DNA of 64,000 nt from Spirochaetia bacterium (GCA_017446885.1 JAFSOR010000027.1:38954-102953), one strand, 5' to 3'; shown: positions 2,735-42,391, numbered from the stretch's first letter. Program-made: numbers and translations. Notes: generated by a model not told the origin, from the sequence alone.

Positions 2735-3334
2735 ATGGATATTTTAGTAGCAACAGGAAACAGGAACAAGATAAAAGAACTTTCGCAGATTATGCCGGAA
2801 CACAGGTTTTTAACCCCGGCCGACCTAAACCTTGAATACGATTATGACGAGACTGGCACCACCTACTGCGAGAACGCCCTGGGCAAGGCACTGTGCCTGC
2901 ACAAAATGGTAGGCAAACCGGTGCTGGCCGAAGATTCAGGCCTTTCGGTTCCTGCCCTTAACGGCGAACCAGGCATCTATTCTGCCCGCTATGGCCAGAA
3001 AGAGGGGCTTAAGCTGAACGATGCCGAGAAAAATGCATATCTTCTTAAAAATCTGGATGGAATAAAGGACAGAAAAGCCTTTTTCGTATGCTCTATGGTC
3101 CTGGTTATGAACGAATACCGCTACTTTGTGGTGCAGGAGACCATGGAAGGCGAGATTGCCCTTGCCCCAGCAGGGACAAACGGCTTTGGCTACGACCCGG
3201 TGTTCTATATCCCAGCCAGCGGAAAAACTGTGGCAGAGATGGACGATGCTGAGAAGAATGCTCTGTCCCACCGTGGAAAAGCAGGCCGCAAGATGAAACT
3301 TATAATAGAATCATTGGCTAAGGAACTTGAGTAA
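2735..3334 (+). CDS. rdgB: RdgB/HAM1 non-canonical purine NTP pyrophosphatase
   Basis: 199 aa. N-terminal ILVATGNRNKIKE, plus FGYDPVF and SHRGKA motifs typical of the family. Confidence 0.9.
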   Translation: MDILVATGNRNKIKELSQIMPEHRFLTPADLNLEYDYDETGTTYCENALGKALCLHKMVGKPVLAEDSGLSVPALNGEPGIYSARYGQKEGLKLNDAEKNAYLLKNLDGIKDRKAFFVCSMVLVMNEYRYFVVQETMEGEIALAPAGTNGFGYDPVFYIPASGKTVAEMDDAEKNALSHRGKAGRKMKLIIESLAKELE

Positions 3335-5139
3335 TGGACAGCGCTGAAATCAAAACACGCGACCAGATAGCGCCAGAGGACAAATGGGATCTTTCTTCCC
3401 TGTTTGCATCCGAGGCCGACTGGGAAAAGGCACTGGCCGATATGAACAGCATCATACCTACCCTTTCCCGATTTAAAGGTACACTTGGACAGAGTGCAGA
3501 AAAGCTTGCCGGATGCCTAAAGGCAATGACAGAATTCCAGATACTGGCAGAAAAGACAGGAAGCTATGCAATGCTTCAGTTCAACACCGATGGCAGCGAC
3601 CCGCAGAACCAGAAACGGTATGGACTCTATATCTCCGCCGCCACCAAGGCCGAGGCCGAGACCAGCTATCTGGTGCCCGAGATACAGGCTATAGCCGATG
3701 ACAAGATGGCAGCTTTCATGCAATCTCCACTTCTGGCCGACTATACAATCTATCTTTCCAAGCTGCTGCGCCAGAAACCCCATATCCTTTCGGAAAAAGA
3801 GGAAAAACTTCTGGCACTTCACAGCGAATCAGACATGACCGCACACAAGGCATTCTCTGCCTTGACCGATGTTGACATGGAATTCGGGACTATAAATGAT
3901 AGCGGCGTGGAAAAACCGCTTACACAGTCCACATTCACATCTTTCCTGCAGAGCCAGGACCGCACAGTGCGAAAGAAGGCATACCAGCAGTTCTATAATG
4001 GCTTTGACAAGCACAAGAACACAATTGCAGCACTGTATGCCGGCAATGTGCAGCTGGATATATTCGGAGCAAAGGCACGCAACTACTCAAGTGCCTTGGA
4101 ATCAGCCCTGGCTCCAGACAACGTACCGCAGAGCGTATACGACAACCTTATTGCCACCATGCACAGCCGTTTCCCGGTGCTGCACCGCTACTATGAGCTT
4201 AAGCGGCAGGCATTGGGTCTTGATAAGCTGGCTCACTACGACGTATATATGCCTTTTACATCGGCTGTGGAGGTAAAGCACACCTATAACGAAGCTGTGG
4301 ACGAGGTTATCGAAGCTCTTAAGCCACTGGGAAGCGAATACTGCAGCATACTTAAAAACGGGCTTACCGGCGGCTGGGTAGATAAATACGAGAACAAAGG
4401 CAAGCGATCGGGGGCATTCTCGGCAGGGGTCTACACAGGCTGGCCATATATCCTGCTGAACTATAAAGAAGACAGGCTGAGGGACCTTTTTACACTGGTG
4501 CACGAAGGAGGCCACTCCATGCACTCCTGGTACAGCGTCAAATCAAATGTGTTCCCCAACTACGACTACACCATATTCGAAGCCGAGACTGCATCCACAT
4601 TCAACGAACAGCTTCTGGCTCGTCACCTTATGAAAAAATATGAAGGCAATGCTGATATGCTGCTCTACCTTGCAGGCAAACAGGCCGACGACTTTGTGGC
4701 TACCGCCTTCCGGCAGACCATGTTTGCGGAGTTCGAGAAAAATGTGCATGCTCATGGCGAGGCAGGATCTCCCCTTACCCTGGAACTTTTCCGAAGCGAA
4801 TACCGCAAACTGCTTGAAGCCTACTTCGGGCCTGATGTTGAACTGCCGGAAGAGGCCGCCCTTGAGGGGCTGCGTATCCCGCACTTCTACAGGGCTTTCT
4901 ATGTATACAAGTATGCCACAGGAATATCGGCCGCAGTTGCATTGGCAGACATGGTGCTTAACGGCGGCGAGACAGAGCGGAGGCGGTATCTGGACTTTTT
5001 GTGTTCGGGCGGCCGCAACTACCCGCTCGATTCGCTTAAAAAGGCTGGAGTGGACATGAGCAGCCCAGAACCGGTGGAAAAAGCCATCGATTATTTTGCC
5101 ACTCTTTTGGACCAGATTGAAAAATTAATGAAAAAGTGA
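3334..5139 (+). CDS. pepF: oligoendopeptidase F (M3B family)
   Basis: 601 aa. HEGGH zinc motif (HEGGHSMH). TAATG overlap with the rdgB stop. Confidence 0.9.
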   Translation: MDSAEIKTRDQIAPEDKWDLSSLFASEADWEKALADMNSIIPTLSRFKGTLGQSAEKLAGCLKAMTEFQILAEKTGSYAMLQFNTDGSDPQNQKRYGLYISAATKAEAETSYLVPEIQAIADDKMAAFMQSPLLADYTIYLSKLLRQKPHILSEKEEKLLALHSESDMTAHKAFSALTDVDMEFGTINDSGVEKPLTQSTFTSFLQSQDRTVRKKAYQQFYNGFDKHKNTIAALYAGNVQLDIFGAKARNYSSALESALAPDNVPQSVYDNLIATMHSRFPVLHRYYELKRQALGLDKLAHYDVYMPFTSAVEVKHTYNEAVDEVIEALKPLGSEYCSILKNGLTGGWVDKYENKGKRSGAFSAGVYTGWPYILLNYKEDRLRDLFTLVHEGGHSMHSWYSVKSNVFPNYDYTIFEAETASTFNEQLLARHLMKKYEGNADMLLYLAGKQADDFVATAFRQTMFAEFEKNVHAHGEAGSPLTLELFRSEYRKLLEAYFGPDVELPEEAALEGLRIPHFYRAFYVYKYATGISAAVALADMVLNGGETERRRYLDFLCSGGRNYPLDSLKKAGVDMSSPEPVEKAIDYFATLLDQIEKLMKK

Positions 5140-7968: not shown

Positions 7969-10484
7969 CTTACTACAAAGTTGACCAGCTTACCCGGCAC
8001 AACAATAGTCTTGATCACTGTCTTTCCAGCCAGAAGCTCCTTGATTCTGTCGTTTGAAAGGGCCTCTTTCTCAAGCTCTTCCTTGGAAGCGCCTTTTGGC
8101 ATAGTCATCTGGCTTCTGTTCTTGCTGTTGATCTGGACAACGATTGTAACTTCATCATCGTGGGTAAGAGCCTCGTCCCAATCGGGCCACTTCTGTAGCG
8201 ATACAGACTCTTTGTTTCCAAGTTTTTCCCACAGTTCTTCGGCCAGGTGCGGCGCATAAGGGCTAAGAAGCAGCACAAATGGCTTCCAGGCTGCAACAGG
8301 AACTTCATCCAACCTGTTGATCTCGTTTATGAAAACCATCATCTGCGAGATAGCTGTGTTGAACTCCAGATTCTTGGTGTCCAAAGAAACTTTCTTTATG
8401 GTCTTGTGGAGCAGCTTGTTCAGGTCCGGTGTAAGCGGTGTATCTACAAACTTTTTCTCGTCGGCTATTCTCCAGATTCTGTCCAGGAAACGGTAGACGC
8501 CTGAAATACCAGTTGTAGACCATGCCTTGGAAACGCTAAGTGGTCCCATGAACATCTCGTACAATCTTATGGAATCGGCACCCAGCTCCTTTACAACCTC
8601 GTCCGGGTTTATTACGTTGCACAGTGATTTTGACATCTTGGCAACTACGCGCTCAAGCTCCTCGCCATCTTCTTTGGAGAAGAACTTTCCTTCCTTTTCC
8701 TCAACCTGATCGGTAGAAACCAGAGCCTTGTTCTTACGCTGATATGCGTATGACAGAATCATTCCCTGGTTCACCAGACGGTGGAACGGCTCCTTGGTGG
8801 AAACCAGACCGAAATCGTAGAGTACCTTGTGCCAGAACCGGGCATAGAGCAGGTGGAGTACCGCATGCTCTGCGCCGCCTACATACAGGTCTACCGGCAT
8901 CCAGTACTTTTCCTTTTCGGGGTCGATAAATTTCTCGGTGTTATGCGGGTCGATGAACCGCAGATAGTACCAGCAGGAGCCAGCCCACTGCGGCATGGTG
9001 TTAATCTCGCGCTTTGCAGGGGCACCGCATTTTGGACAAGTGGTGTTGACCCAGTCTTCGATAGCTGCCAATGGAGACTCGCCTGTACCTGTCGGAAGGT
9101 AGCTTGTCACCTCTGGCAATGTAAGGGGCAGGTCTTTTTCTGAAAGTGGCACATTGCCGCAGTGTGGGCAATGCACTATAGGGATAGGCTCGCCCCAGTA
9201 CCGCTGGCGAGAGAAAATCCAGTCCCTGAGCTTATAGTTTATGGCCTTGTGACCGCATTTATTCTTTTCCAAGAACTCAAGCATCTTGTTTATTGCATCC
9301 TGCTTGTTAAGGCCGTCCAGCCACTGTGAGTTCACGTGCTCGCCATCCTCGGTCCAGGCCTGGGTCTGAACATCTACAGGAGATTTGAGAACCTCGATGA
9401 TAGGAAGGTTGAACTTCTTGGCAAATTCCCAGTCGCGGTCGTCGTGGGCAGGTACTGCCATTATGGCACCAGTTCCGTAGGAGATGAGTACATAGTCGGC
9501 AATCCAGATTGGAATGCGGTCGCCATTCACAGGGTTTATAGCATAGCTGCCTGTGAACACGCCTGTCTTATCCTTTGCCAGGTCGGTGCGCTCCAGGTCT
9601 GACTTATGGGCTGCCATATCAAGGTATGCCTGCACCTCTGCCTTCTGCGAAGGCACAGTAAGCTTTTCCACCAGCGGATGCTCCGGGGCAATTACCATAT
9701 AGGTGGCACCGAACAGAGTATCGCACCGGGTGGTGTATACCTCGAGTTTCTCGTCCATGTTCTCAAGCTGGAAGAATACGGCCGCACCCTCGCTTCGGCC
9801 TATCCAGTTCCGCTGCATAGCCTTTATTGCCTCGGGCCAGTCCAGAAGGTCAAGGTCCTCCAGAAGCCTGTCGGCATATGCTGTAATTTTGAGCATCCAC
9901 TGGCGTATGTTCTTGCGCACTACAGCAGTACCGCAGCGCTCGCATTTGCCCTCTTTGACCTCTTCGTTGGCAAGACCTGTCTTGCAGGAAGGACAGAAGT
10001 TTATAGGCTGCTCAGACTCGTAAGCAAGTCCTTTTTCGTACAGTTTAAGGAAAATCCACTGAGTCCACTTATAGTAGTCTGACTCGCAGGTGGAGACTTC
10101 CCGGTCCCAGTCGTAGCTGAGTCCCAGAGATTTTATCTGGCGGCGGAATACATCGATATTCTTATGGGTGGTAACACGTGGATGTGTTCCTGTCTTAATG
10201 GCGTAGTTTTCAGCAGGCAGACCGAAGGAGTCGAATCCCATTGGGTGCAACACCGCATAGCCGTTCATACGCAGGTAGCGGCAGTAGATGTCGGTGGCGG
10301 TATAGCCTTCCGGGTGGCCTACATGCAGACCTGCTCCGGACGGATATGGGAACATATCCAGGACATATTTACGTTTTTCTGCTGGGATAGAAGGATCCTC
10401 AACTGCCTTGAAAGTCTTGTGCTCATCCCAGTACTTCTGCCATTTTTTCTCTATTTCTGTAAAAGGATATTTACTCATATTCAA
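7965..10484 (-). CDS. leuS: leucine--tRNA ligase
   Basis: 839 aa. HVGH (HIGH) and KMSKS motifs. ATGA stop/start overlap with the downstream aminopeptidase. Confidence 0.97.
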
Positions 10485-15959: not shown

Positions 15960-15988
15960 TTGACTTATAAAAATACTGATACTATAAT
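15960..15988 (+). promoter_or_regulatory. sigma70-type promoter for the 16.0-21.6 kb operon
   Basis: TTGACT, 17 nt spacer, TATAAT; about 12 nt upstream of the first candidate start codon. Confidence 0.5.
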
Positions 15989-15999: not shown

Positions 16000-17316
16000 G
16001 TGGAGATAGTTGTGAACCCACAGGATGACGAACTTGTATTTGCAGATGAACTCACCTTTGCCGACGAGGACAAAGCGCCGCATCAGCCACAGGACAACCA
16101 GGAGCCAGAAAAAGCGTGGAAAGTGCTTGTGGTGGACGACGAGCCCCAGGTGCACACCGTAACCAAGCTGGTTCTGCGGGATCTGACATTCAAGGGGCGC
16201 AAAATCGAGTTCTGCGACGCCTACTCTGCCGCCGAGGCCAAGAAGGTGCTGGCCGAGAATCCCGATATCTGTCTGGCCCTGGTAGATGTGGTCATGGAAG
16301 AGGACGACGCCGGACTGCACCTGGTGGAATACATCAGGGATATAATGAACAACAAGGCTATCCGCATCATACTCCGCACCGGCCAGCCTGGATATGCACC
16401 CGAGAAAGAAGTAATAATCGACTACGACATCAACGACTACAAGGAAAAAACCGAGATGTCGGCACAGAAACTCATAACCTGTGTGATAACTGCAATACGC
16501 AACTACGAATATATCGACGCCCTTAACAAGCTGACAGCCGAACTGGAGCAGAAGGTGGCAGACCGGGTTGCCGAACTGGACGAATCCAACCGCAAGCTGC
16601 TCGAGGACCAGGAGGCTGGCAAGAAGCTTCAGAACAAGATTCTGCCCAAGCCAGAGAAAGAGATAGGTCCATACCTTTTCTCGAGCCGCCTGTTCCCATC
16701 GCTGGTCTTAAGCGGCGACTTCATCGACTATTTCTCAATCTCAAGCCGCTATATAGGCTTCTACATGGCAGATGTGTCGGGCCATGGAATATCTTCGGCA
16801 ATAGTCACAGTGCTGCTCAAGAACTTCATAGACAATAAAGTCGAGAAATTTGCCCTGTGGGATGACCAGACTGTCCTGAATCCGCAGGAGATTTGCACAA
16901 GGATAAACAGTATCCTGCTCCGAGAGAACCTGGGCAAATACCTGACCATCTTCTACGGAATCATAGACATGGAGACCAACACGCTAAGCTATGCAAACTG
17001 CGGTCAGTTCCCATACCCTGCATTCGTATCGGGAGGCGAAAAGAAATTCCTGATGGAGAAAGGTACCCCTGTGGGGCTTTTCAAATCTCCTGTAATCAAG
17101 ACCAGCTCGATACAGCTTCCGGAACACTTTTGCATGCTTTTGTCATCGGACGGGCTTTTAGATATTCTGGATGGCGACCTTGATGCAAAAAGCAGCAAAA
17201 TCCTGACCGAACTGGCCGAGAAAGGGGATTCGCTTGAAAGCCTTGTAGAAAGCTTCAAAGTGCAGCAGCATGGCAACCTGCCGGATGATATAACATTCAT
17301 GCTGATAAGGAAGTAG
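16000..17316 (+). CDS. response-regulator receiver fused to a PP2C/SpoIIE-type serine phosphatase (RsbU-like)
   Basis: 438 aa. REC domain (KVLVVDDEP...DVVMEEDDAG...DYKEK), a coiled linker, and PP2C motifs SGDFIDYF, ADVSGHG, SSDGLLD. GTG start at 16000 or 16012. Confidence 0.85.
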   Translation: MEIVVNPQDDELVFADELTFADEDKAPHQPQDNQEPEKAWKVLVVDDEPQVHTVTKLVLRDLTFKGRKIEFCDAYSAAEAKKVLAENPDICLALVDVVMEEDDAGLHLVEYIRDIMNNKAIRIILRTGQPGYAPEKEVIIDYDINDYKEKTEMSAQKLITCVITAIRNYEYIDALNKLTAELEQKVADRVAELDESNRKLLEDQEAGKKLQNKILPKPEKEIGPYLFSSRLFPSLVLSGDFIDYFSISSRYIGFYMADVSGHGISSAIVTVLLKNFIDNKVEKFALWDDQTVLNPQEICTRINSILLRENLGKYLTIFYGIIDMETNTLSYANCGQFPYPAFVSGGEKKFLMEKGTPVGLFKSPVIKTSSIQLPEHFCMLLSSDGLLDILDGDLDAKSSKILTELAEKGDSLESLVESFKVQQHGNLPDDITFMLIRK

Positions 17317-17325
17317 GGAGTTCAG

Positions 17326-17820
17326 ATGGGAAACTACTATTTTGCAAAGGATGGCGACAAAGTTTATTTCAAGCTGACAGGTGTGCTCAAATACACATCA
17401 TGCGGCCATTTCGACGCATTCCTTGACGACTTCATAGCCCACGCATCGGATGTGGAGTCGGTTGCAATAGACCTGACCGAGGCGACATTCCTGGACAGCA
17501 CCAACTTAGGCTTTTTGGCCAAGATAGCCCAGTTCATGCTGGACAAGAACGGCAGCACCACCACTATCTACTCCACCGACAAAGATGTCAATCAGACACT
17601 GCGCGGAGTAGGCTTTGACCAGGTGTTCAACCTGGTTGAGGATAAATCGAACCTGGACAAAATCTTCGGCGAGATAGAAGCTGACAAATTCGAGAAAAAG
17701 GACAAGACCATAATGATGCTTTCTGCCCACCGCTGCCTGATGAATATAAACGAGAAAAACCAGCAGACATTCAAGGATGTGGTAAGCCTGATGGAGCAGA
17801 GTCTTAAGAGCAAGCTCTGA
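17326..17820 (+). CDS. STAS-domain protein (anti-sigma-factor-antagonist-like) with a C-terminal extension
   Basis: 164 aa. DLTEATFLDSTNLGFL resembles the SpoIIAA/RsbV phospho-Ser segment (DLS..SFMDSSGLG). Confidence 0.7.
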   Translation: MGNYYFAKDGDKVYFKLTGVLKYTSCGHFDAFLDDFIAHASDVESVAIDLTEATFLDSTNLGFLAKIAQFMLDKNGSTTTIYSTDKDVNQTLRGVGFDQVFNLVEDKSNLDKIFGEIEADKFEKKDKTIMMLSAHRCLMNINEKNQQTFKDVVSLMEQSLKSKL

Positions 17821-17824
17821 TACC

Positions 17825-19144
17825 ATGCCATCTATTCTTTCGGTAAAAAACCTGTCATTCAGATATCCCTCGTACCCCGGCCTTGAGAGCAAACCACTAT
17901 TCAACAACCTTTCGTTTGACCTGGAGAAAGGGAGCATGACAGTATTCCTGGCCCTGCCGGGAGCGGGGAAAACCACCCTGTCGCGCATACTCACAGGCCT
18001 GGTTCCGGCCTACACAGGAGGCGAGCTTTCGGGCTCCATAGAGAAAAACGGAACTACCGGCATTGTGTTCCAGAACCCCGATGAAGAGCTTTTCTGCAGC
18101 ACCGCCGAGAAAGAGGTGGTTTTCCCGCTTGAAAACGCAGCCCTGCCACGGGAGGAAATCGCATTCCGCGCCGATATGGCATTCCAGAAAACTGGCATAG
18201 AATACCTGCGTTTCAAAAAACCTATCCACCTGTCGGGGGGCGAGAAGCGGCGGCTTTTAATAAGCGTTCTGTTTGCCACCGACCCTGACATATGGATTCT
18301 GGATGAAACCCTGGAAGAGATTGATATCCTGGGCCGGGAAGAGATTCTCTCCTTTCTTAAAAAAAGCGGGAAAACCATACTCATACTCACAGCCAAAATG
18401 CTTGATGTATACAAAAAATATGCCGACAACTTCATCGTTTACAGCGGAGATTATTCACTTGACGAACCGCTGCCGGATGAGGAGACGATAAAAGCCCTGG
18501 AGGGTAATACTTTTCAAAATCCACTTTTAAAAGTTGAAAATATCCGTTTTACCTACCCCGATTCAGATTTTACACTCAGCATAGACCAATTTGTTCTGGC
18601 ACAGGGGAAAACTACCGCAGTAATAGGCACAAACGGCTGCGGAAAATCCACCCTGTCCCGCATCATAGCGGGGCTGCTTGTTCCGGCAGCGGGCAAGGTC
18701 CTGCTGTTTGGAGCAGAAGGAGGAGCCGAAAAGCTTAACCGGAACTGCTCGTACCTCTTCCAGAACCCCGACTACCAGCTGTTCCTCCCCACAGCACGGG
18801 CCGAGCTGGAATATGGCCTTAAACTGCAAAAACTTTGCGCCGCCGAAATCGAGGAAAAGGTACATAAGGCAATAGAAGTATTCGGCATAGAGCACCCCGA
18901 CGCACCCCCTGTCCTTATGAGCTACGGCCAGCGTAAAAAGCTTCAGGCGGCCATATACTGGCTACTGGAGAAAAAAATAGTAATCATAGACGAGGCCGAT
19001 TCAGGCATATCATCAAAGGAATATCGCCAGATTATAGATGCATTCAAAAGCTCGCAGGCAAACCCGGCCATACTGGTTATAACCCACGATATAAAGCTGG
19101 CATCCCAAGTTGCAGACAAGATATTCAGGATGGGCGCTTTATGA
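17825..19144 (+). CDS. ECF-type ABC ATPase with two fused NBDs (EcfA1-EcfA2-like)
   Basis: 439 aa. NBD1 has PGAGKTT, LSGGEKRR, ILDE. NBD2 has GTNGCGKST, MSYGQRKK, IIDEADSG, ITHD. FQNPD motifs typical of the CbiO/EcfA family. Confidence 0.85.
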   Translation: MPSILSVKNLSFRYPSYPGLESKPLFNNLSFDLEKGSMTVFLALPGAGKTTLSRILTGLVPAYTGGELSGSIEKNGTTGIVFQNPDEELFCSTAEKEVVFPLENAALPREEIAFRADMAFQKTGIEYLRFKKPIHLSGGEKRRLLISVLFATDPDIWILDETLEEIDILGREEILSFLKKSGKTILILTAKMLDVYKKYADNFIVYSGDYSLDEPLPDEETIKALEGNTFQNPLLKVENIRFTYPDSDFTLSIDQFVLAQGKTTAVIGTNGCGKSTLSRIIAGLLVPAAGKVLLFGAEGGAEKLNRNCSYLFQNPDYQLFLPTARAELEYGLKLQKLCAAEIEEKVHKAIEVFGIEHPDAPPVLMSYGQRKKLQAAIYWLLEKKIVIIDEADSGISSKEYRQIIDAFKSSQANPAILVITHDIKLASQVADKIFRMGAL

Positions 19145-19848
19145 AAAAACCGTTCCTCTATCTTGCAGACCCACGCCTTAAGCTCATACTTGTTATGCTT
19201 TATACCGCCGCATTCTTCTGCCCTGTTTCGGCCACAAGATATGCCCTTTTGCTTGTTCCTGTGCTGATATCGGGCTTTATCACCTGCGGCTTTAGGCAGT
19301 TTTTGTCGGTATTCAAGCTGATTCTGCCCCTCATTATCCTTACAGCTATCCTTACTCCGCTGTTCTCAGGCATACATGAGACAGTCCGCATAATCCTGCG
19401 GTTTATAGGCATAACAGCCCTGTTCTTCCTGTACTTCAAGACAACAGATTCTGATGAATTCATACAGACCCTGCGCTTTTTCGGCATGCCATACCGTCTT
19501 GCGCTGGTCATCTCCATATCCACCAGCTATATTCCCCTGCTGCTTGAGACCTGGCACGATGCTCAGGCTGCCCACAAGCTGCGCTACACCGAAAACTGCC
19601 CGCCAGTAAGCAGATGGAACTTCATAGCCCGCTTCTGCTCTATCCTGCCAGTTCTTTCTTCGGTGCTGATCCAGGCGGTAAAGAGTATTCCTACACTTGC
19701 CATGGCACTTGAAATAAGGGGTGTGGGCAAGGCAAAACCCACTGTTTTCCGCCCTATCCCGCTTAAAAAACCGTTATACTTACAATTATTGTTGTATTTT
19801 ATCCCGATTACTGTTATAATTTTAATATTGGTGATTTATGCAGCTTAA
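19141..19848 (+). CDS. ECF transporter transmembrane T component (EcfT/CbiQ family)
   Basis: 235 aa, polytopic. Contains the A-x-x-x-R motif region (ALEIRGVG). ATGA overlap with the ATPase gene. Confidence 0.8.
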   Translation: MKKPFLYLADPRLKLILVMLYTAAFFCPVSATRYALLLVPVLISGFITCGFRQFLSVFKLILPLIILTAILTPLFSGIHETVRIILRFIGITALFFLYFKTTDSDEFIQTLRFFGMPYRLALVISISTSYIPLLLETWHDAQAAHKLRYTENCPPVSRWNFIARFCSILPVLSSVLIQAVKSIPTLAMALEIRGVGKAKPTVFRPIPLKKPLYLQLLLYFIPITVIILILVIYAA

Positions 19849-20251
19849 TTTTTCTATACCTGGCGATGATATGGACATGGCTGGAATCGCATCCAGCACA
19901 CTTAAGAAGAAACTCCAGCAGATTGGCGTTGACAACTCTGTCATAAAGCGGACAGTGGTTGCTCTGTACGAGGCCGAGATAAACATGGTCATCCATGGCG
20001 GAGGCGGCGATATTACCATCACTGTATCTCCTACCGAGATACAGTGCGAGCTTACCGACCACGGCCCTGGAATCGCCGATGTAAACCTGGCCATGCAGGA
20101 GGGTTATTCAACAGCCACCGATGCCATCCGCGAGATGGGCTTCGGAGCAGGTATGGGACTTCCAAACATCCAGCGGAACTCGGACCACATGGAGATACAT
20201 ACAGTCCCAGGCGAGGGCACTACAGTCAAGATAATGATTAAGATAGGATGA
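19838..20251 (+). CDS. RsbW/SpoIIAB-like anti-sigma regulatory factor (HATPase_c Ser/Thr kinase)
   Basis: 137 aa. N-box EAEINMVIHG, G1 DHGPGI, G2 GFGAGMGL. Confidence 0.8.
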   Translation: MQLNFSIPGDDMDMAGIASSTLKKKLQQIGVDNSVIKRTVVALYEAEINMVIHGGGGDITITVSPTEIQCELTDHGPGIADVNLAMQEGYSTATDAIREMGFGAGMGLPNIQRNSDHMEIHTVPGEGTTVKIMIKIG

Positions 20252-20255
20252 CAGG

Positions 20256-21554
20256 ATGAGCGAAGAGTACTTACATTCCGTAACACTGGATAAAGATCTC
20301 TGCAAAGGGTGCACCAACTGCATATCACACTGCCCTACAGAGGCTATCCGTGTGCGCGATGCCAAGGCAATGATAATCTCTAACCGGTGCATCGACTGCG
20401 GCCAATGCATAAGGACCTGTCCTTCCCATGCCAAGAAGGCTGTCAGCGATCCTCTTGATATGCTCAACAAGTTCACATTCAAGGTTGCTCTGCCAGCTCC
20501 AAGCTTCTATGCCCAGTTCAAGAATGTTTCTATAGATACAGTGCTCACTGCTCTTAAGAAATTCGGCTTTGATGATGTATACGAAGTGGCAAGCGCCGCC
20601 GAGATAGCATCTATAGCAACCGCCGAGCTTATAGAGAAAGTAAAGACACCGCGTCCCCTTATATCATCTTCCTGCCCTGCTGTGGTGCGGCTTATCCAGG
20701 TGCGGTTCCCAAGCCTTATAGAGCATGTAATAAAGATACAGACCCCTATGGAGATTGCGGCGCGTATTGTAAAGAACCAGATTTACCCCGACAAGCGGGG
20801 GCTTGGTGTGTTCTTTATCTCTCCATGCCCTGCAAAAGTTACCAGCGTACGGGTTCCGTTAGGAAACGAAAAGTCCGAGGTAGATGGCGTAATAGCCCAA
20901 AAAGATATCTACCCTGCACTGCGGAAGATTATCAAGACTATCGATAAACCGGAACACCTTTCAAAGGCATCCAGCATAGGAATAAGATGGGGACACAGCG
21001 ACGGCGAGAGCGAAGCTGTGAACTCAAAAAAGAGTATATCGGTAGATGGCATTGACCACGTAATAAAAGTGCTTGAGCAGATAGAGAGCGAGGACTTCCA
21101 CCACATAGAGTTCATAGAGGCCATGGCCTGTCCGGGCGGCTGCGTGGGTGGCACCCTGACTGTGGAAAATCCGTTCATTGCCCGCTCAAGGCTTAAGCGC
21201 TACAGCCAGGCCTGTGAGAACCGGGGAATCAAGGGGTCAGACCAGCTCACAGAATTCGACATAGCATGGACCAAGGAGATTTATTCACATCCTGTGCTCA
21301 AGCTCAGCGAGAATATGTCCGAAGCCATCAAGATGATGGACGAGATTGACAAGATAGATGCCGAACTCCCCGGCCTAGACTGCGGCTCATGCGGTGCCCC
21401 GACCTGTCATTCGCTTGCCGAGGATATCGTAACAGGCAAGGCACAGAAAACCGACTGCATATTTATTTTGCGCGACGAGATAAAGAAAGTGGCTGGTCAA
21501 ATGGCAGAGCTTGAGAAGAGGATGCCCCAGGCAAGGAACTTCGAGAATAAATAA
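20256..21554 (+). CDS. [FeFe]-hydrogenase-like (Fe_hyd_lg_C) iron-sulfur protein, probably sensory
   Basis: 432 aa. Two ferredoxin-type CxxCxxCxxxCP motifs, H-cluster-like motifs SSSCPAV / SPCPAKV / EAMACPGGCVGG, and a C-terminal CGSCGAPTC cluster motif. Confidence 0.85.
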   Translation: MSEEYLHSVTLDKDLCKGCTNCISHCPTEAIRVRDAKAMIISNRCIDCGQCIRTCPSHAKKAVSDPLDMLNKFTFKVALPAPSFYAQFKNVSIDTVLTALKKFGFDDVYEVASAAEIASIATAELIEKVKTPRPLISSSCPAVVRLIQVRFPSLIEHVIKIQTPMEIAARIVKNQIYPDKRGLGVFFISPCPAKVTSVRVPLGNEKSEVDGVIAQKDIYPALRKIIKTIDKPEHLSKASSIGIRWGHSDGESEAVNSKKSISVDGIDHVIKVLEQIESEDFHHIEFIEAMACPGGCVGGTLTVENPFIARSRLKRYSQACENRGIKGSDQLTEFDIAWTKEIYSHPVLKLSENMSEAIKMMDEIDKIDAELPGLDCGSCGAPTCHSLAEDIVTGKAQKTDCIFILRDEIKKVAGQMAELEKRMPQARNFENK

Positions 21555-22310
21555 TTATTCTGCCTGTCTTTTCATATAGTTTTCATAAGCGATGTGGGCT
21601 GCATGCTGCTCGGCAGTCTTTTTGTTCTTGCCTTCGCCCGGTCCGAAAACCTCATCCTTTATAACCACCTCAACCAGGAAAGTCTTGTCGTGGTCGGGAC
21701 CAGTCTTCTTGACCAGCTTATACTTAGGACAGGTCTTATAAGTCTTCTGCACAAACTCCTGAAGCAGTGTCTTGTAATCCTGCTCATGCTTGTTCTCAAG
21801 CACATTCATAATCTCAGGCACCAGGTAGCTTAGGACAAATTCCTGCACCGGCTTGAAGCCCGAATCAAGGTAGTATGCCCCTATAAGAGCCTCCATGCAG
21901 TCGGCCAGTATAGCCTTTTTGGAGCGGCCTCCGGAATACTCCTCGCCCTTTCCTATAAGTATGAAATTGTCTATGCGGATAGCCTTTGCAATCTTGCTTA
22001 AAGAAGCTTCGCTTACAACAAATGATTTTATGCGGGCCATATCACCTTCGGCCTTGTCCTTAAGGTGCAGATACAGATATTCGCTGGTTATAAGGCCAAG
22101 CACAGAGTCGCCCAAGAACTCAAGCTTCTCGTTGTTCTCTATGTCTTCTGAGCTTTCATTGACATAGGAGCGGTGGCAGAATGCAAGGTTGAGTAAATCC
22201 AGGTTGATGAAATCAAGCCCAACCTGGTCTTGAAATAACAAAAGCTCCCGTTTTCTCTTTGAATCGATCCGGGGAGCTTTTACAGCAATTTTCTTCTGAA
22301 AATTAAACAC
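21555..22310 (-). CDS. rnc: ribonuclease III
   Basis: 251 aa. ERLEFLGD-type signature (EKLEFLGDSVL) and a C-terminal dsRBD. Confidence 0.95.
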   Translation of the reverse strand: MFNFQKKIAVKAPRIDSKRKRELLLFQDQVGLDFINLDLLNLAFCHRSYVNESSEDIENNEKLEFLGDSVLGLITSEYLYLHLKDKAEGDMARIKSFVVSEASLSKIAKAIRIDNFILIGKGEEYSGGRSKKAILADCMEALIGAYYLDSGFKPVQEFVLSYLVPEIMNVLENKHEQDYKTLLQEFVQKTYKTCPKYKLVKKTGPDHDKTFLVEVVIKDEVFGPGEGKNKKTAEQHAAHIAYENYMKRQAE

Positions 22311-33472: not shown

Positions 33473-33604
33473 AAGTCTACTATACTACAAAACTGGGCAC
33501 CGTGCTATAAATTTATTATTAAAAAGCGATAATTTTTTGTTATAAACTTGGAATAGTGTTGGTTTTTGAAAAAAGTTAGGATAGAATTGAATCGGGAGGA
33601 GCAG

Positions 33605-34306
33605 ATGAAAGCTTCGGTTGTTATCATAGAAGATATAAAAGAGATGTCCGACCTTATCCAGCTTTATCTTAAGCGCGAGGGTATGGACACTGCCGCCTTT
33701 GACAATGCAGAGGATGCGCTGGAATATCTTAAGACCACAACTCCTGACCTTATACTGCTGGACATAAACCTCCCAGGCATGGACGGCTTTGAGTTCCTTA
33801 ACATCTACCACAAGCAGTCCGACTGCCCTGTGCTTATAGTCTCGGCCCGGGATTCGGACGAAGATATAATTATGGCACTTGGATATGGCGCAGATGAATT
33901 TGTGACCAAACCCTTCTCTCCAAAGGTGCTTATGGCACGGATCCGGGCTCTGCTGCGGAGGAATCAGAGCGGCTATGCAGGCGCCTCAAAAAGCTTGATA
34001 CAGTTCGGCCCATACACATTGAACACAGAATCCTGCCTGCTCAAGAAAGGCGACGAGCGAATCCATCTTTCTGCAAAGGAATATGATATTCTGCAGTATC
34101 TTATAAGCACAAAGGGGAAAACCAGCACCCCCGAGGAAATCTACCGCAAGGTATGGGGAAGCGAGTTCGGCGACCTTACAGCGGTGGCAGTCTATGTGCA
34201 GCGCCTTAGGAAAAAGCTTGAGTCAGATCCTGCATCACCACACTTTATCGAGACTGTGCATGGCATGGGGTATCGGTTTATGTATGATGAGGATTCTAAG
34301 AAATGA
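33605..34306 (+). CDS. OmpR-family response regulator
   Basis: Start at the internal Met after a GGGAGGAG SD. REC domain (DLILLDINLPGMDG) plus a winged-helix output domain (VHGMGYRF). Confidence 0.9.
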   Translation: MKASVVIIEDIKEMSDLIQLYLKREGMDTAAFDNAEDALEYLKTTTPDLILLDINLPGMDGFEFLNIYHKQSDCPVLIVSARDSDEDIIMALGYGADEFVTKPFSPKVLMARIRALLRRNQSGYAGASKSLIQFGPYTLNTESCLLKKGDERIHLSAKEYDILQYLISTKGKTSTPEEIYRKVWGSEFGDLTAVAVYVQRLRKKLESDPASPHFIETVHGMGYRFMYDEDSKK

Positions 34307-35661
34307 AGATAAAGACCCAGATTCTGCTGCTCCTTGCAGGGCTTATAATTATTCCGATAGTACTCCTTACATCCTACTGGCTAATGTTCCACCAAAGGCA
34401 GGTCTTAAGCGACAATGTCCCCACCTATGAAGAGATATTCAGCGAACGTCCCCAGGTAACTACAGAGGAAGACTGGGAGCGGATACGAAGCTTTATCGCC
34501 CGCCGCAGTCCAGCCATGGATGTCACAGTATTTGACAGAGCCTCCATGGAAGTGCTGTACTCCACCATGGATCAGTTTAAAAGAGGCCAGGTTATGGACG
34601 AGGATGACCTTATGGAATATGCCCTTGAAAATTCCGACCGGTACTTTTTTCAGATGACTGCACCACCCCACCTTAAGAACAGTTCGCTGATTACTTTCAT
34701 AAGGTCGCAGAAAACCATGCATCCCCCCCATTCAAGGCTTGAGCATTACGTCAACACCGTGACTATCATTTCTACCATCATACTTTTATTCTGTATTGTC
34801 ATCATAACTACAATAACCAGGTCTATCGCCAAGTCGGTAACTGTCCTTAAGAATGCGGCAGAGCGTGTCACCATGGGCGAGTTTGACACGCCGATTGAAG
34901 TACATGGCAGCAACGAGATTATCTCCCTGACCAAGTCGCTTAACGAGCTTAGGCTGGCAGTAAAGGAGAACCGTGACAGACAGGCGCGGTTTATCATGGG
35001 AGTCTCCCACGACCTTAAGACACCGTTAGCACTTATCAGGGGCTATGTGGAGGCCCTGTATGATGAGATTCCATCAAATCCCGAGGAAAGACAGAAATAT
35101 GCCCAGATTATCCTGAAAAAAGCTGATGACCTTGAGGTACTGATAAACGACCTTATCGATGTTATCAAGGTGGAGACAGGAGAATGGCGCTCAACCTGGA
35201 AAGATGTGAACCTGCTTTCATTTATAAATGAGGTGGCAAAGCGGGGCGATGAGGCTGCCCTTATCCTGAAGCGTAAGTTTATTGCAGATATCTCCTTGCC
35301 CGAAGATGCTGTGGTGCAGATGGACGAGCGGCTTATGAGCCGGTGCTTCGAAAACCTTTTCAGCAACGCTATCAGGTATTCCCATGACGACGGAACTATA
35401 AAGCTCAGGGCATTCCAGTCTTATTCGGGGGTCAAGAGCTGCTTTATTGTGCAGATAGCAGACAATGGCATTGGCATTGCCCAGGAAGAGCTTAAGAATA
35501 TATTTGACCTGTTCTACCGGGGCACCTCGTCGCGGCGCGAGAAAGGAAGCGGCCTGGGCCTTGCCATAGTAAACAGCATAGTACGGTCTCATAACTGGGA
35601 GATAGGGGTAGAATCAGAGGCAGGGAAAGGGACAGTATTCACCATCACAATCCCTGCTTGA
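34303..35661 (+). CDS. sensor histidine kinase (2 TM, HAMP, HisKA, HATPase_c)
   Basis: 452 aa. H-box GVSHDLKTPL, N-box, G-boxes DNGIGI and GSGLGLAIV. ATGA overlap with the response regulator gene. Confidence 0.9.
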   Translation: MKIKTQILLLLAGLIIIPIVLLTSYWLMFHQRQVLSDNVPTYEEIFSERPQVTTEEDWERIRSFIARRSPAMDVTVFDRASMEVLYSTMDQFKRGQVMDEDDLMEYALENSDRYFFQMTAPPHLKNSSLITFIRSQKTMHPPHSRLEHYVNTVTIISTIILLFCIVIITTITRSIAKSVTVLKNAAERVTMGEFDTPIEVHGSNEIISLTKSLNELRLAVKENRDRQARFIMGVSHDLKTPLALIRGYVEALYDEIPSNPEERQKYAQIILKKADDLEVLINDLIDVIKVETGEWRSTWKDVNLLSFINEVAKRGDEAALILKRKFIADISLPEDAVVQMDERLMSRCFENLFSNAIRYSHDDGTIKLRAFQSYSGVKSCFIVQIADNGIGIAQEELKNIFDLFYRGTSSRREKGSGLGLAIVNSIVRSHNWEIGVESEAGKGTVFTITIPA

Positions 35662-37355: not shown

Positions 37356-37754
37356 ATGAAAATTGACAACGTTTCCCAGAAAGTAGTTGACCTGATGACT
37401 GCCGATAAATTTGTGGATTACTGCGGCATAAAGCTGGACGAGATAGGACCGGGCTATGCAAAGACATCGGTGGAGATCCAGCCACACCACCTGAACGGCG
37501 CGGGAATAATACAGGGGGGCGTGCTCTTCACACTGGCCGACTATGCCCTGGCATCGGCCGCCAACTCCCGGGAAAAGCTTTCTGTGTCTATCGAGACCTC
37601 CATGTCCTTCATAAAAGGGGTATCCACCGGCAAGGTGTCTGCCACCGCCCGGGAGGTGACCTGCGGCCGGACATTGACCCGCTACGATGTCCCTGTGACC
37701 ACCGAGGACGGCACCCTGATTGCACTTCTGCACGGCACTGTGTACAGGAAATAA
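37356..37754 (+). CDS. PaaI-family hotdog-fold thioesterase
   Basis: 132 aa. NGAGIIQGGVLFTLADYALA motif. Confidence 0.8.
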   Translation: MKIDNVSQKVVDLMTADKFVDYCGIKLDEIGPGYAKTSVEIQPHHLNGAGIIQGGVLFTLADYALASAANSREKLSVSIETSMSFIKGVSTGKVSATAREVTCGRTLTRYDVPVTTEDGTLIALLHGTVYRK

Positions 37755-37761
37755 GATACTG

Positions 37762-39054
37762 TTAACAGTCTAAACTGTTCTCATCCAGCAAAAAATCTAT
37801 AAGTCCGATACGTGAAATACCATTATCATCTATCCAGCTCTTGCCATAGGATTTTGATATTACAATTTTTTTAAAAGAATCTTTTATTTTTGTTAACGGT
37901 CTCAATTCGGTTTCGGACTTCTTGGCATCATCCATTGACAGTGATGATTGTATATAGTATTTTCTGATACCTTTTCTGGCAATGAAATCAATTTCGCAGT
38001 TATTCTGTGTCCTCTTTCCGTTATCATCTATTTCCCGCAGCGGAACAACCCCAACATCCACCAAGTATCCTCTGGTTATCAATTCATTGTAAATCATGTT
38101 TTCCATTATATGTGACTCTTCCTGCTGCCGTAACCCTAGACGTACATTCCGAAGGCCGATATCTGTGCAATAATATTTTGATGGATATTCAAAATACTTT
38201 TTGCCTTTAATATCATATCTGACAGCTTCGCTGAACAAAAAACTTTCTGTCAAATAGTTTAAATACTTACTGACAGTCTCAGAATCGATATTCACATTCT
38301 TAGTGCTTTTTATAGTTCTAGCAATTTTGCTGGCATTTGTAAGTGAACCTACCGCAGAACAAAGTACGCTTACCAAATCATGAAGAACACCTGGTAACGA
38401 TATATTATACCGTTCCTCTATATCCTTGAAATAAATCTCATCAAAAAGGTTTGCAAGATAATCATATTTAGCGGTATCCGAGTTAATACTCAATAAATGA
38501 GGCATTCCTCCGAACATAGAATATTCATTATAGGCATCAAGCTTATCTTTTTTACTGGCATTATAATATTCGCTGAAAGATAAAGGATAAACCTGAATCA
38601 CATCACCTCTGCCACGGAACTCTGTAGAGATATCTTTAGAGAGCATCTTGGAGTTGCTTCCTGTCACATACACATCCACATTCTTCAAATGAAGCAATCC
38701 ATTCAAAACGCTGTATAACCTTACAGGTTCATCTTTATTCATAAGTTCTTTCTTAGATATAGCATATTGTATCTCATCAAGAAGAATATAGTATTTAGCC
38801 CTAGGATCAGTTATCTTTTCTCTTAAATATTCTGAAAGCTTATTGGGGTCTCTATACAGAGCATTAAGATCAGAATCCAAGGCGACCGATATGATTTGAT
38901 ATGGCGCAACCCCTGATTCAATAAGATAATTCTGAAAAAGATCAAGCAAAAGAGTACTTTTTCCGCACCGTCGAATACCAGTAATAACTTTAATCTGACC
39001 GTTCCAGCCCCTATCTATCAGTGCTTTCAGGTATTTATCACGAGATACTATCAT
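37762..39054 (-). CDS. AAA+ ATPase of the COG1373 type (AAA_14 plus DUF4143)
   Basis: Start is likely at MIVSRDKYLKALI. Walker A GIRRCGKST, Walker B ILLDEIQ, and a C-terminal EIDFIA nuclease-like motif. Confidence 0.8.
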   Translation of the reverse strand: MIVSRDKYLKALIDRGWNGQIKVITGIRRCGKSTLLLDLFQNYLIESGVAPYQIISVALDSDLNALYRDPNKLSEYLREKITDPRAKYYILLDEIQYAISKKELMNKDEPVRLYSVLNGLLHLKNVDVYVTGSNSKMLSKDISTEFRGRGDVIQVYPLSFSEYYNASKKDKLDAYNEYSMFGGMPHLLSINSDTAKYDYLANLFDEIYFKDIEERYNISLPGVLHDLVSVLCSAVGSLTNASKIARTIKSTKNVNIDSETVSKYLNYLTESFLFSEAVRYDIKGKKYFEYPSKYYCTDIGLRNVRLGLRQQEESHIMENMIYNELITRGYLVDVGVVPLREIDDNGKRTQNNCEIDFIARKGIRKYYIQSSLSMDDAKKSETELRPLTKIKDSFKKIVISKSYGKSWIDDNGISRIGLIDFLLDENSLDC

Positions 39055-39151
39055 TTTGCCTCTCTTATCGGAAGTTACTGCCAAATACCATTAACTTCCG
39101 AGATAAATATATCAAATCGGCCGATAAAAATCAATACTCTATCACATATAA

Positions 39152-39183
39152 TAAAAAACCCCGGCTACAGGCACAACCGGGGG
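39152..39183 (-). terminator. Rho-independent terminator after the 96-aa gene
   Basis: Minus strand: CCCCGG-ttgtgcctgtag-CCGGGG followed by T6. Confidence 0.6.
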
Positions 39184-39208
39184 ATTCCTTTCTTCTAAAA
39201 TACGTTCT

Positions 39209-39499
39209 TCATCTTTCCTTGCAGCCGAAAATACCAGTCAAGAGGCCACCCACAAAGCTTAGTGCAGTAAGCCCTCCTACAACTGCAAGACCTTTTTTCC
39301 AGGCATCTGGGTCCTCATGGATTTCAATCTCATCGGATTCTTCATCTTCATTTTCTTCTGCGCAAACCTCATCCTCCTCTGAGATTTGCTCTTCCATTTC
39401 TGCAATCATTTTTTCGTACCTTTCATTAAGTTCGGCAGTTTTTGCAAGCTTTTCCTCAAACTCTTTCATCAATTCTTCTGGATTCTTTTTTTCGTCCAT
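39209..39499 (-). CDS. acidic, C-terminally membrane-anchored small protein
   Basis: 96 aa. E/D-rich helical N-terminus and a C-terminal TM helix (GLAVVGGLTALSFVGGLLTGIFG). AAAGGAG SD. It has its own terminator. Confidence 0.55.
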   Translation of the reverse strand: MDEKKNPEELMKEFEEKLAKTAELNERYEKMIAEMEEQISEEDEVCAEENEDEESDEIEIHEDPDAWKKGLAVVGGLTALSFVGGLLTGIFGCKER

Positions 39500-39542
39500 T
39501 TTTTACTCCTTTAATTCTTGATGATTCAAATCTACCCTGCCT

Positions 39543-39565
39543 ACTCCGCCACCTGATGTCAGAGT
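39543..39565. promoter_or_regulatory. 23-bp imperfect palindrome, copy 3 (operator candidate)
   Basis: actccgccacctgatgtcagagt, 44 nt upstream of the 96-aa gene start. Confidence 0.55.
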
Positions 39566-39599
39566 GCAAAAAAAGTTAAAAAACTTGTTTAGCAATCTA

Positions 39600-39815
39600 T
39601 GCCAGCAATAGTACGCTCCAGCAGACCGCCAAAACCTCAGGCAGATAACAAACAAGCAATCTGCTGGCAGCAATAAGGCACACCCGCTCGGTAGGTGCGT
39701 TCCCTTCGGGCCGCAATACCGACGGGCATGCCTTTTGCTGCCATTCAGTTACCGCTTTCACCTGTCTGAGGTTTTGCGGCCAGCTTCCGCCTAATCGAGG
39801 GAGCATTTGCTGGCA
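39600..39815 (+). ncRNA. roughly 216-nt rod-like structured RNA candidate
   Basis: Nested helices: 39600-08/39807-15 (9 bp), 39615-19/39800-04, 39626-44/39762-79 (18 bp, one bulge, one G-U), 39661-63/39746-48, 39665-73/39735-43 (9 bp), 39675-80/39729-34, 39683-93/39717-26, and a UUCG-type tip. There is a 16 x 13 nt central bubble. The only track ORF here (69 aa, minus strand) has no SD or family signal. Confidence 0.45.
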
Positions 39816-39904
39816 GTGTAAGCATTTACAAAGTTTTTCATATTATTTGCATTTTGTGGGGCAAACTTTGAAGCAAAATTGATTTTTTTTGTGTTAGTAA
39901 CAGT
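39804..39904 (+). repeat. intergenic repeat, copy B (partner at 6031..6119)
   Basis: It has the same three conserved blocks as copy A. Its 5' end overlaps the 3' arm of the RNA candidate. Confidence 0.7.
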
Positions 39905-39962
39905 GCAAGGGGACAATCACCTTGACATTATAGGTTTTATCCTATATTTTAAAGGAGGAAAT

Positions 39963-40319
39963 ATTCCGAACTTCAAGGTAGATTTCTATGAGACAGCAAA
40001 TGGGAAAAGGCCAGCAGAAGAATTTCTGATAAGCCTTGACAGAAAAATGCGAACAAAGATGCTCAGAATGATTGTAATTCTGAGCGAAAACGGAAATGAG
40101 CTTCGGGAACCTTATTCTAAGTTTATTTCGGACGGTATTCATGAGCTAAGAGCAAAAGTTGGATCCGATATATCGCGTATCTTATATTTCTTTATGATTG
40201 GACAACGCATAATTCTGACTAATGGATTTATCAAGAAAACTCAGAAAACACCAAGAGGTGAGTTAAAGAAAGCAATAAAATACCGAGCCGATTATTTAAG
40301 GAGATGGAGGATAATATGA
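39963..40319 (+). CDS. higB: HigB/RelE-superfamily toxin (Gp49-like, DUF891 type)
   Basis: KVDFYETANGKRPAEEFLISL...IHELRAKVGSDISRILYFF...ILTNGFIKKTQKTP is the typical family pattern. The start is uncertain: ATT at 39963 lies 4 nt after GGAGG, and the track TTG at 39879 would add 28 non-family residues. Confidence 0.75.
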   Translation: MPNFKVDFYETANGKRPAEEFLISLDRKMRTKMLRMIVILSENGNELREPYSKFISDGIHELRAKVGSDISRILYFFMIGQRIILTNGFIKKTQKTPRGELKKAIKYRADYLRRWRII

Positions 40320-40603: not shown

Positions 40604-40629
40604 TCAGTAACCCCGTGAAGTCTTTCGTC

Positions 40630-40785: not shown

Positions 40786-40948
40786 CCTCTTAGAAATCCA
40801 ACACCCTGGCAGGTTATAACCAGTAGCCTGCCGGGGTATTATGACTTATTTTTGCTCTTTTTCTTTTGACTTCTCTATATCGGCGGGGATTTCCAGATGT
40901 ATAGGGGGAAGCCCTCGCTTCTTAAGCTCGATCTGTGTCTTAGTTTCT

Positions 40949-42382: not shown

Positions 42383-42391
42383 AACTATATC

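Follow-up and report, generated by a model that had tools for sequence, protein, structure and literature searches.

INTRODUCTION

Partner switches with outputs other than a sigma factor exist, such as BtrUVW of Bordetella, SypE/SypA of Vibrio and HsbR/HsbA of Pseudomonas, and such outputs include secretion, biofilm or cyclic-di-GMP enzymes. STAS proteins can also regulate ABC ATPases, as in the MlaB-MlaF pair, and to our knowledge none of these systems involves an energy-coupling factor (ECF) transporter or a hydrogenase. For the group D 'sensory' [FeFe]-hydrogenases, it is openly stated to be unknown how the signal is passed on, and the redox state of their C-terminal cluster is unchanged by H2 (PMC8163306; PMC13104023); for the hfs-type sensors of group C, a regulatory rather than a catalytic role has been proposed (PMC5707799). 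Here we analyse a six-gene locus at 16012-21554 on the plus strand of a 64,000-nt stretch of DNA from a Spirochaetia bacterium (GCA_017446885.1, JAFSOR010000027.1:38954-102953; the whole stretch is called the window, and positions are counted from its first letter). It is well supported that the six genes are one operon of a rumen Spirochaetia species, joining a sensor-kinase pair, a STAS protein with a REC (receiver)-PP2C phosphatase, and an ECF energising module. Based on this linkage we propose, tentatively and with somewhat less than even confidence, that sensing of H2 or redox state acts as a post-translational gate on the ECF motor, the ATPase standing where a sigma factor usually stands.

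RESULTS

Six genes behind one conserved promoter

Our listing of open reading frames (ORFs) agreed with the first-pass annotation, a note made from the sequence alone, in placing six tightly spaced or overlapping genes on the plus strand, and Pfam and NCBIfam searches upheld all six of its domain assignments. The features are as follows.

15960-15988, plus strand: sigma-70-type promoter, -35 TTGACT, 17-nt spacer, -10 TATAAT, 11/12 match
16002-16014, plus strand: Shine-Dalgarno GGAG (16002-16005) and likely true start of gene 1, GTG (16012-16014)
16012-17316, plus strand: gene 1, REC-PP2C phosphatase (Pfam/NCBIfam)
17326-17820, plus strand: gene 2, STAS protein, RssC-like (Pfam/NCBIfam)
17825-19144, plus strand: gene 3, fused double ABC ATPase, ECF A1A2 (Pfam/NCBIfam)
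19141-19848, plus strand: gene 4, EcfT/CbiQ (Pfam)
19838-20251, plus strand: gene 5, HATPase_c_2, RsbW/SpoIIAB-like GHKL protein (Pfam)
20256-21554, plus strand: gene 6, putative group D [FeFe]-hydrogenase (Pfam: two Fer4, Fe_hyd_lg_C and the FeS domain PF04060)

No gap is longer than 9 nt: the intergenic gaps are 9, 4 and 4 nt, the stop of A1A2 and the start of EcfT share an ATGA (19141-19144), and EcfT and the kinase gene overlap by 11 nt (19838-19848). The consensus promoter named in the annotation gave the top score of a 7-kb scan, and neither its -35 nor its extended -10 (TACTATAAT) varies among the window and loci L004, L005, L007, L008 and L102 (L numbers denote loci in related genomes). 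This alignment comprises the window and five genomes, i.e. four further species and a conspecific metagenome-assembled genome (MAG; L102), and the DNA upstream of the -35 is unalignable across the six promoter sequences. Signals resembling promoters or terminators, which the annotation had considered as marks of separate transcripts, are no more frequent inside the operon than in shuffled sequence. The start of gene 1 had been put at 16000; GTG at 16012 is the likelier start, because the aligned start (ATG in L008), the GGAG and most gene calls (434 aa in 9/10 near-identical contigs) agree.

Housekeeping genes stand on either side of the operon (ffh, rpsP, rimM and trmD; rnc, acpP, rpmF and coaD). 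As the annotation had stated for the adjacent genes, no sigma factor was found in the operon, in these flanks or in the ten further window ORFs examined. The stop codon of the hydrogenase gene directly abuts the convergent rnc stop with zero spacer (21552-21557), therefore any terminator of the operon must lie within rnc, and weak hairpins are present at 21595-21617.

All six genes are under purifying selection. In five genomes whose operon lacks a gene for the substrate-binding S component (dS 0.7-1.0), the ratio of nonsynonymous to synonymous substitution rates (dN/dS) lies within 0.03-0.11, with values of 0.087 for PP2C, 0.060 for STAS, 0.107 for A1A2, 0.090 for T, 0.026 for the kinase and 0.028 for the hydrogenase. 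Moreover, motif positions taken from the translations show catalytic and ligand motifs intact in 6/6 gene products.

A group D hydrogenase and its travelling kinase

The product of gene 6 (432 aa; PF02906 134 bits, PF04060 53 bits) has two N-terminal CxxCxxCxxxCP motifs, CKGCTNCISHCP and CIDCGQCIRTCP, and the H-cluster motifs SSSCP, SPC (ISPC) and MACPGGC with all four H-cluster cysteines. The proton-relay Cys299 is replaced by Ser (SSSCP) and Met353 is likewise replaced by Ser (SPC), and a C-terminal Cx2Cx4Cx16C occupies aa 376-401 (CGSCGAPTC-16-C), with the protein ending 31 aa later; no PAS domain is among its Pfam matches. These features are those by which M2e/TamHydS proteins are defined (PMC8163306; PMC13104023), and by its sequence gene 6 thus encodes a putative sensory [FeFe]-hydrogenase of group D (M2e), TamHydS type. 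The first-pass annotation had drawn its analogy with the hfs-type loci; this has to be given up, since the protein has the group D/M2e features, has no PAS domain and so is not of group C.

Gene 5 (137 aa) matches HATPase_c_2 PF13581 at 45 bits and SpoIIAB TIGR01925 at 51 bits (cut-off 135), and its N, G1 and G2 boxes read EAEINMVIHG, DHGPGI and GFGAGMGL; a PDB sequence search with this kinase returned only a weak match, to CheA (E 0.0025). A search for the group D hydrogenase family gave at least 8000 matches, and in every neighbourhood that we opened a small HATPase_c_2 gene stands directly before the hydrogenase gene, often overlapping it. In C. thermocellum (L084) the order is DRTGG-kinase-Hyd-DRTGG-PHP, upstream of a bifurcating hydrogenase; in L085 and L105, the latter a Spirochaetales MAG, it is REC-kinase-Hyd-SpoU; L106 has a clostridial-type module into which a riboswitch-controlled rib operon is inserted; and in the ECF-linked loci it is A1A2-T-S-kinase-Hyd. 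Kinase and hydrogenase of the window are 51% and 53% identical to those of C. thermocellum, and with the pair recurring across such contexts they are an ancient two-gene unit with changeable partners. The GHKL kinase thus belongs, by sequence comparison, to a family whose members accompany group D hydrogenases from phylum to phylum, and the clostridial DRTGG and PHP proteins may have the role that STAS and PP2C have here.

In L106 (6530-13255) the module consists of kinase, group D hydrogenase, DRTGG and PHP genes, and the inserted genes are ribD-ribE-ribBA-ribH with their own flavin mononucleotide (FMN) riboswitch (8362-8479), between the hydrogenase and DRTGG genes; immediately upstream there are a T-box tyrS and an ECF S gene, the latter unrelated.

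This mobility also suits another explanation, namely that the H2/redox switch acts on something distant, such as a sigma factor, a fermentation enzyme or a hydrogenase, and that the ECF operon shares at most a promoter with it. The pair sits in many unrelated neighbourhoods, among them the bifurcating hydrogenase of C. thermocellum, REC/SpoU and the riboswitch-controlled rib operon, and hfs-type/group C sensors have remote effects on adhE and fermentation genes (PMC5707799). A distant target is the main rival to gating of the motor and in our view only somewhat less probable; the history of the operon, given below, bears on it from both sides.

The phosphatase and STAS proteins

Gene 1 (434 aa) combines a SpoIIE/PP2C domain (PF07228, 99 bits) with a receiver domain, which Pfam matches at 28 bits, just below the cut-off, and which is covered by a full-length RssB-type alignment (NCBIfam RssB_Pseudo, E 4e-61, under its cut-off). 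The receiver has its acidic pocket DD at aa 42-43 together with Asp92, Thr123 and Lys144, and the metal-binding motifs GDFIDYF, ADVSGHG, SSDGLLD and LPDDITF are present in the PP2C domain. Gene 2 (164 aa) consists of STAS PF01740 and a C-terminal helical extension and aligns full-length with NCBIfam RssC (E 5.5e-30, under the cut-off); in a PDB sequence search it had only a weak match, to TM1442 (E 0.007). Its DST segment, FLDSTNLG, contains the candidate phospho-site Ser58 (nt 17497-17499), and the phospho-site segment FLDSTNLGFLAKIA is invariant in five genomes, including L009 with its 65% identity. The annotation had read the PP2C, STAS and RsbW-like genes as a complete partner-switching set. 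The STAS, GHKL and PP2C motifs bear this out, but the kinase is one of the hydrogenase-associated family, whose clostridial members have DRTGG/PHP neighbours, and the label is plausible but not secure.

A response regulator of OmpR type and a HAMP-HisKA histidine kinase are encoded as a pair at 33566-35661, 12 kb downstream of the operon; nothing points to this pair feeding the receiver of gene 1. Stand-alone REC genes beside kinase and hydrogenase in other Spirochaetales were also considered as kin of that receiver and showed no specific kinship to it.

The ECF motor is maintained

Gene 3 (439 aa) encodes two ABC_tran domains, with 229 bits to ECF_ATPase_1 and 212 bits to ECF_ATPase_2, both under the equivalog cut-offs. 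The first nucleotide-binding domain has Walker A, LSGGE and Walker B, with the H-loop His absent (ILILTAKM); the second has Walker A, Walker B and the H-loop THD, with a degenerate signature, MSYGQ. The A1A2 ATPase has one degenerate and one consensus ATP site, an asymmetry common to the whole spirochaete subfamily; since loci without the sensor genes also have it, it predates the sensor association. In the window's clade the ATPase is shortened by a 13-aa deletion and the loss of its C-terminal tail, and the window species has a further in-frame deletion of 21 aa in the inter-domain linker, near nt 18450, so that A1A2 is 439 aa long in the window and conspecific contigs vs 460 aa in the sister species (L004-L008). 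Gene 4 (235 aa; CbiQ/EcfT PF02361, 44 bits) keeps both coupling-helix Arg motifs, AHKLR and ALEIRG. Across 23 EcfT homologues A144, H145, R148, A189, L190 and G194 are invariant, E191 is nearly so, and ALExRG is conserved.

No S gene was found in the operon or anywhere else in the 64-kb window, and together with the shortened ATPase (13-aa deletion, tail loss and 21-aa linker deletion) this could mean that A1A2-T no longer transports and serves the switch as a membrane scaffold or an ATP-driven signalling device. We regard such a repurposing as very improbable, given that the consensus ATP site is whole, as are both coupling motifs of EcfT, that A1A2 and T are under purifying selection, and that a conserved S gene of the same family persists elsewhere in a conspecific genome and in many rumen Spirochaetia, as described below. 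Decay of the ECF genes after the departure of S was ruled out by dN/dS and by the intact motifs; the motor is maintained, because dN/dS of A1A2 and T is low.

The S component has probably moved

A profile search revealed orphan S genes in Spirochaetia MAGs that are 62-63% identical to the S of L010, within a highly conserved family (63% mean column identity). They lie beside guaA-purA-purB, which is on the minus strand, and are followed by an ArsB/CitMHS-like transporter. One of them (L094; GCA_017405275.1, contig JAFRAR010000010.1, 3644-4189) is divergent from purB-purA-guaA, as are those of L087-L093, and an ArsB/CitMHS/MamN-like transporter follows wherever the contig reaches on (L087, L089, L091-L093). 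GCA_017405275.1, the conspecific MAG, holds both this orphan S and the S-less six-gene operon (L102) on separate contigs, the latter with the same 439-aa ATPase as the window and an EcfT within the window's 90% cluster. Both loci were also found together in two metagenome samples, and orphan S genes of the operon's family are present in many rumen Spirochaetia. Thus, as far as genome comparison can tell, the S gene was probably relocated to a purB-linked locus in the window's species and not lost.

Among solved structures, chain S of the L. brevis ECF complex 4HZU, which we take to be HmpT, comes nearest to the S family by sequence (E 6e-26, vs 1e-6 for RibU). The HmpT chain was later reportedly identified as a pyridoxamine carrier. 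Flavin had been considered as substrate from the 'riboflavin' name of PF07155 and the rib operon of L106; this idea loses weight, since the L106 operon comes with an FMN riboswitch of its own and S is far closer to the 4HZU HmpT than to RibU. In L090, from a related lineage, purB and the orphan S have between them, directly upstream of S, a full-length gene for the H-cluster maturase HydG (3086-4504, minus strand; TIGR03955, 900 bits), a second and independent proximity of the S family to [FeFe]-hydrogenase biology. Indirectly, this maturase gene also speaks for a putative H-cluster, reactive with H2, in the group D protein.

A metabolic link between the two halves of the operon has to be weighed here: the ECF importer could bring in a cofactor or precursor, B6-like or HMP (hydroxymethylpyrimidine)-like to judge from S, for the hydrogenase system or a pathway under the sensor's control, and the genes would be co-expressed for supply. 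The nearest solved relative of S (4HZU_S), the HydG gene of L090, a ferredoxin gene heading the L001 operon and the rib operon within the clostridial-type module of L106 would all suit this. It fits poorly, since the sensor genes stayed when S, the substrate-specific part, moved; besides, the HydG adjacency is confined to one lineage and the rib operon is under its own riboswitch. Supply therefore seems to us an improbable reason for the linkage.

Stepwise assembly of the operon

The closest proteins to those of the window are from rumen and gut Spirochaetia MAGs. Relatives were collected by an EcfT-alignment scan, with one genome per species, and the resulting 80 loci were annotated with the window's proteins; they fall into six tiers by EcfT identity.

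Tier i, 80-85%: L004, L005, L007 and L008, complete, and L006, partial with the contig cut in A1A2; the same six genes, no S
Tier ii, 52%: L009; seven genes, PP2C-STAS-A1A2-T-S-kinase-hydrogenase
Tier ii, 53%: L010; order of L009 from T onward, contig cut
Tier iii, 54%: L001 (= L011), a horse-gut MAG; ferredoxin-A1A2-T::S fusion-kinase-hydrogenase, no PP2C/STAS
Tier iv, 40-43% (L013-L017): L013-L017 and L086; A1A2-T-S-kinase-hydrogenase
Tier v, lower: about 30 further Spirochaetota loci; A1A2-T-S only
Tier vi, lowest: non-spirochaete relatives; A1A2-T

In a neighbour-joining tree of A1A2+T, all kinase/hydrogenase-linked loci fall in one clade, in which the kinase-hydrogenase pair is kept next to the ECF genes in 13/13 scorable species-level genomes (L012, also within the clade, is unscorable, its contig ending at T). 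The block occurs in two chromosomal settings, ffh|...|rnc-acpP-coaD and fabDGF|...|CNNM-NicX, written with a bar at each end of the block, and A1A2, T, kinase and hydrogenase diverge in parallel. The adjacency has outlasted the T::S fusion, the relocation of S, the gain of PP2C+STAS and both settings. After S had departed the kinase and hydrogenase remained with A1A2-T, and the kinase gene now overlaps EcfT.

The order of genes is thus kept in relatives, contrary to what a fortuitous juxtaposition of unrelated genes, which the first-pass annotation had allowed for, would lead one to expect. Synteny down to about 45% EcfT identity in two chromosomal contexts, overlapping reading frames and one conserved promoter for the set contradict such a juxtaposition, and the chance is so small that we neglect it.

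From the tiers and the tree, four steps of assembly can be read. A complete, dedicated ECF operon, A1A2-T-S, is ancestral; the kinase-hydrogenase pair joined its 3′ end once; REC-PP2C and STAS joined the 5′ end later, in a subclade, and were probably lost again in L011; and S left the operon in the window's clade. The annotation had described an ECF module placed between antagonist and kinase. The order of events is the opposite, because the tiers and the A1A2+T tree put the ECF operon first and the signalling genes at its 3′ and then its 5′ end.

Applied to a distant target, this history gives a divided answer. The ECF link arose only once, as that explanation would have it; against it stand the adjacency kept in all 13 scorable genomes despite several rearrangements, a translational overlap with the last ECF gene that was re-established once S had gone, the recruitment of PP2C+STAS into the ECF operon and not beside any other target, and the lack of a sigma or transcription factor in the operon or its flanks.

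Further observations on the relatives and the window

In L001 (6284-9185) the T::S fusion protein has 394 aa, and the operon begins not with PP2C+STAS but with a gene for a 57-aa 2x[4Fe-4S] ferredoxin. Loci of the fabDGF tier (L014 13120-14361, L013, L015-L017 and L086 8359-9609) have a gene of CNNM/CorC type (Mg/Co efflux-like) downstream of the hydrogenase gene; the two are immediate neighbours in most of them and about 4 kb apart in L013. Two Planctomycetota MAGs have a GAF-PP2C gene ahead of a distant fused A1A2-T, next to it in L078 (6163-10651) and about 4 kb from it in L051 (1474-10477); PP2C genes are abundant there, so this proximity could be chance. The ATPase ORFs of L078 and L051 have unexplained N-terminal extensions of 200-270 aa. 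In the window itself, 37700-44500 has the look of an acquired or defence-type island: its GC content is 0.38-0.39 vs about 0.48, and besides small unknown ORFs it encodes an AAA_14/DUF4143 ATPase, a WYL-HTH regulator and a patatin-like phospholipase.

DISCUSSION

A sensor that may gate the ECF motor

Gene linkage suggests that transporter activity could be the output, or the input, of the switch. In the mechanism that we propose, the hydrogenase-like sensor (HydS) would report H2 or redox state to the GHKL protein bound to it, and this protein would in turn control the ECF motor; the simplest route would be to bind or phosphorylate the A1A2 ATPase, which would take the place of the sigma factor in a classical partner switch. 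In the PP2C/STAS subclade, STAS would compete for the kinase, being phosphorylated on Ser58 and reset by PP2C, and the PP2C receiver could add a second input from some histidine kinase. The net effect would be a post-translational gating of vitamin or micronutrient import by H2/redox status.

Two observations favour gating of the motor. In the ECF-linked loci without STAS/PP2C there is no other candidate partner of the kinase within 7-10 kb, and the ECF proteins are its only conserved neighbours in those tiers; moreover, the linkage follows the motor and not the substrate-binding subunit. The fullest form of the proposal, in which kinase and group D hydrogenase gate the ECF importer directly, with the fused ATPase as a stand-in for sigma and STAS/REC-PP2C as an antagonist layer, is rather unlikely to hold in every part.

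Several points weigh against gating. The ECF linkage is a single acquisition in one clade of one phylum, and hence counts as one evolutionary event plus retention. Elsewhere the same kinase-hydrogenase pair stands beside hydrogenase, DRTGG/PHP, REC or rib genes, and may be a generic sensor acting on a remote target. Phosphorylation of STAS by the kinase is an assumption, because the clostridial neighbours of the kinase are neither STAS nor PP2C, and L011 is without PP2C+STAS yet nested in the A1A2+T tree between lineages having both. No riboswitch pointing to the substrate was found: at Rfam gathering thresholds, the window and seven related loci yielded tRNAs only. RNA support for a single transcript is minimal: traces of the locus occur in only three RNA-labelled runs, as short contigs at low level with no operon-length coverage. 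A 172-nt metatranscriptome contig crosses the EcfT/kinase junction and short contigs from sheep-gut RNA-labelled runs touch 4/6 genes, and the library may contain DNA.

If direct gating of the ECF motor is true, three firsts would follow: nutrient uptake regulated by H2, a partner switch that controls an ABC-type transporter and, for a group D sensory hydrogenase, a defined output. H2 partial pressure is a key variable of rumen fermentation, and a regulatory link would tie it to micronutrient uptake. Sensor and GHKL partner share the operon with a phosphatase, with STAS (Ser58) as candidate substrate and with the ECF motor as candidate output, a small set that can be tested pairwise. The stepwise build from ECF operon to sensor-kinase, STAS-PP2C and relocation of S is also a clean example of operon evolution.

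Comparison with known systems

The first-pass annotation had not seen such a combination described, and in agreement with this no account of an ECF module with a partner switch, with STAS/anti-sigma proteins or with a sensory hydrogenase was found in open-access full texts, where absence is not proof.

Among classical partner switches, SpoIIAA/SpoIIAB/SpoIIE and RsbV/RsbW/RsbU likewise consist of a STAS protein with a DS(T) Ser, a HATPase_c_2 GHKL kinase and a PP2C phosphatase that has an input domain at its N terminus. In contrast, the window operon is without a sigma partner, its kinase is of the hydrogenase-associated subfamily, and two transporter genes stand between its STAS/PP2C genes and the kinase gene. 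Genes 1 and 2 align full-length with Pseudomonas RssB/RssC (NF045505, NF045506) in the same architecture and order, but at 207 and 104 bits they stay far under the respective equivalog cut-offs of 700 and 250 bits. We know of no kinase, hydrogenase or transporter gene adjacent to the Pseudomonas pair. Regulation of an ABC ATPase by a STAS protein has its precedent in MlaB-MlaF, although no relation of the window STAS to MlaB is shown at the sequence level.

The transporter half resembles L. brevis EcfAA'T-HmpT (4HZU) and the YkoEDC-type fused-ATPase systems in its two ABC domains and CbiQ-family T, and relatives of the window operon have the A-T-S order. It differs from them in its fused and shortened ATPase, of which one ATP site is degenerate, in an unlinked S and in the four signalling genes that the operon includes.

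The hfsABCD locus of Thermoanaerobacterium and HydS of Ruminococcus albus (group C) also bring a hydrogenase-like sensor together with a Ser/Thr kinase and PP2C (PMC5707799); those sensors have a PAS domain whereas the window protein has none, and no ECF genes are described in hfs loci. Gene 6 is like TamHydS of Thermoanaerobacter mathranii (group D/M2e; PMC8163306, PMC13104023), which has the same domain plan, again without PAS: two N-terminal [4Fe-4S] motifs, four H-cluster cysteines, Cx2Cx4Cx16C, no Cys299 and Met353 replaced by Ser, with a histidine-kinase-like/GHKL ATPase gene directly upstream. The neighbours of TamHydS are a bifurcating hydrogenase, downstream of it, and an AraC regulator, whereas the window pair has no transcription factor or catalytic hydrogenase nearby and belongs to an ECF operon with STAS/PP2C. 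The parts of the operon are all of known kinds, and it is their combination that is new.

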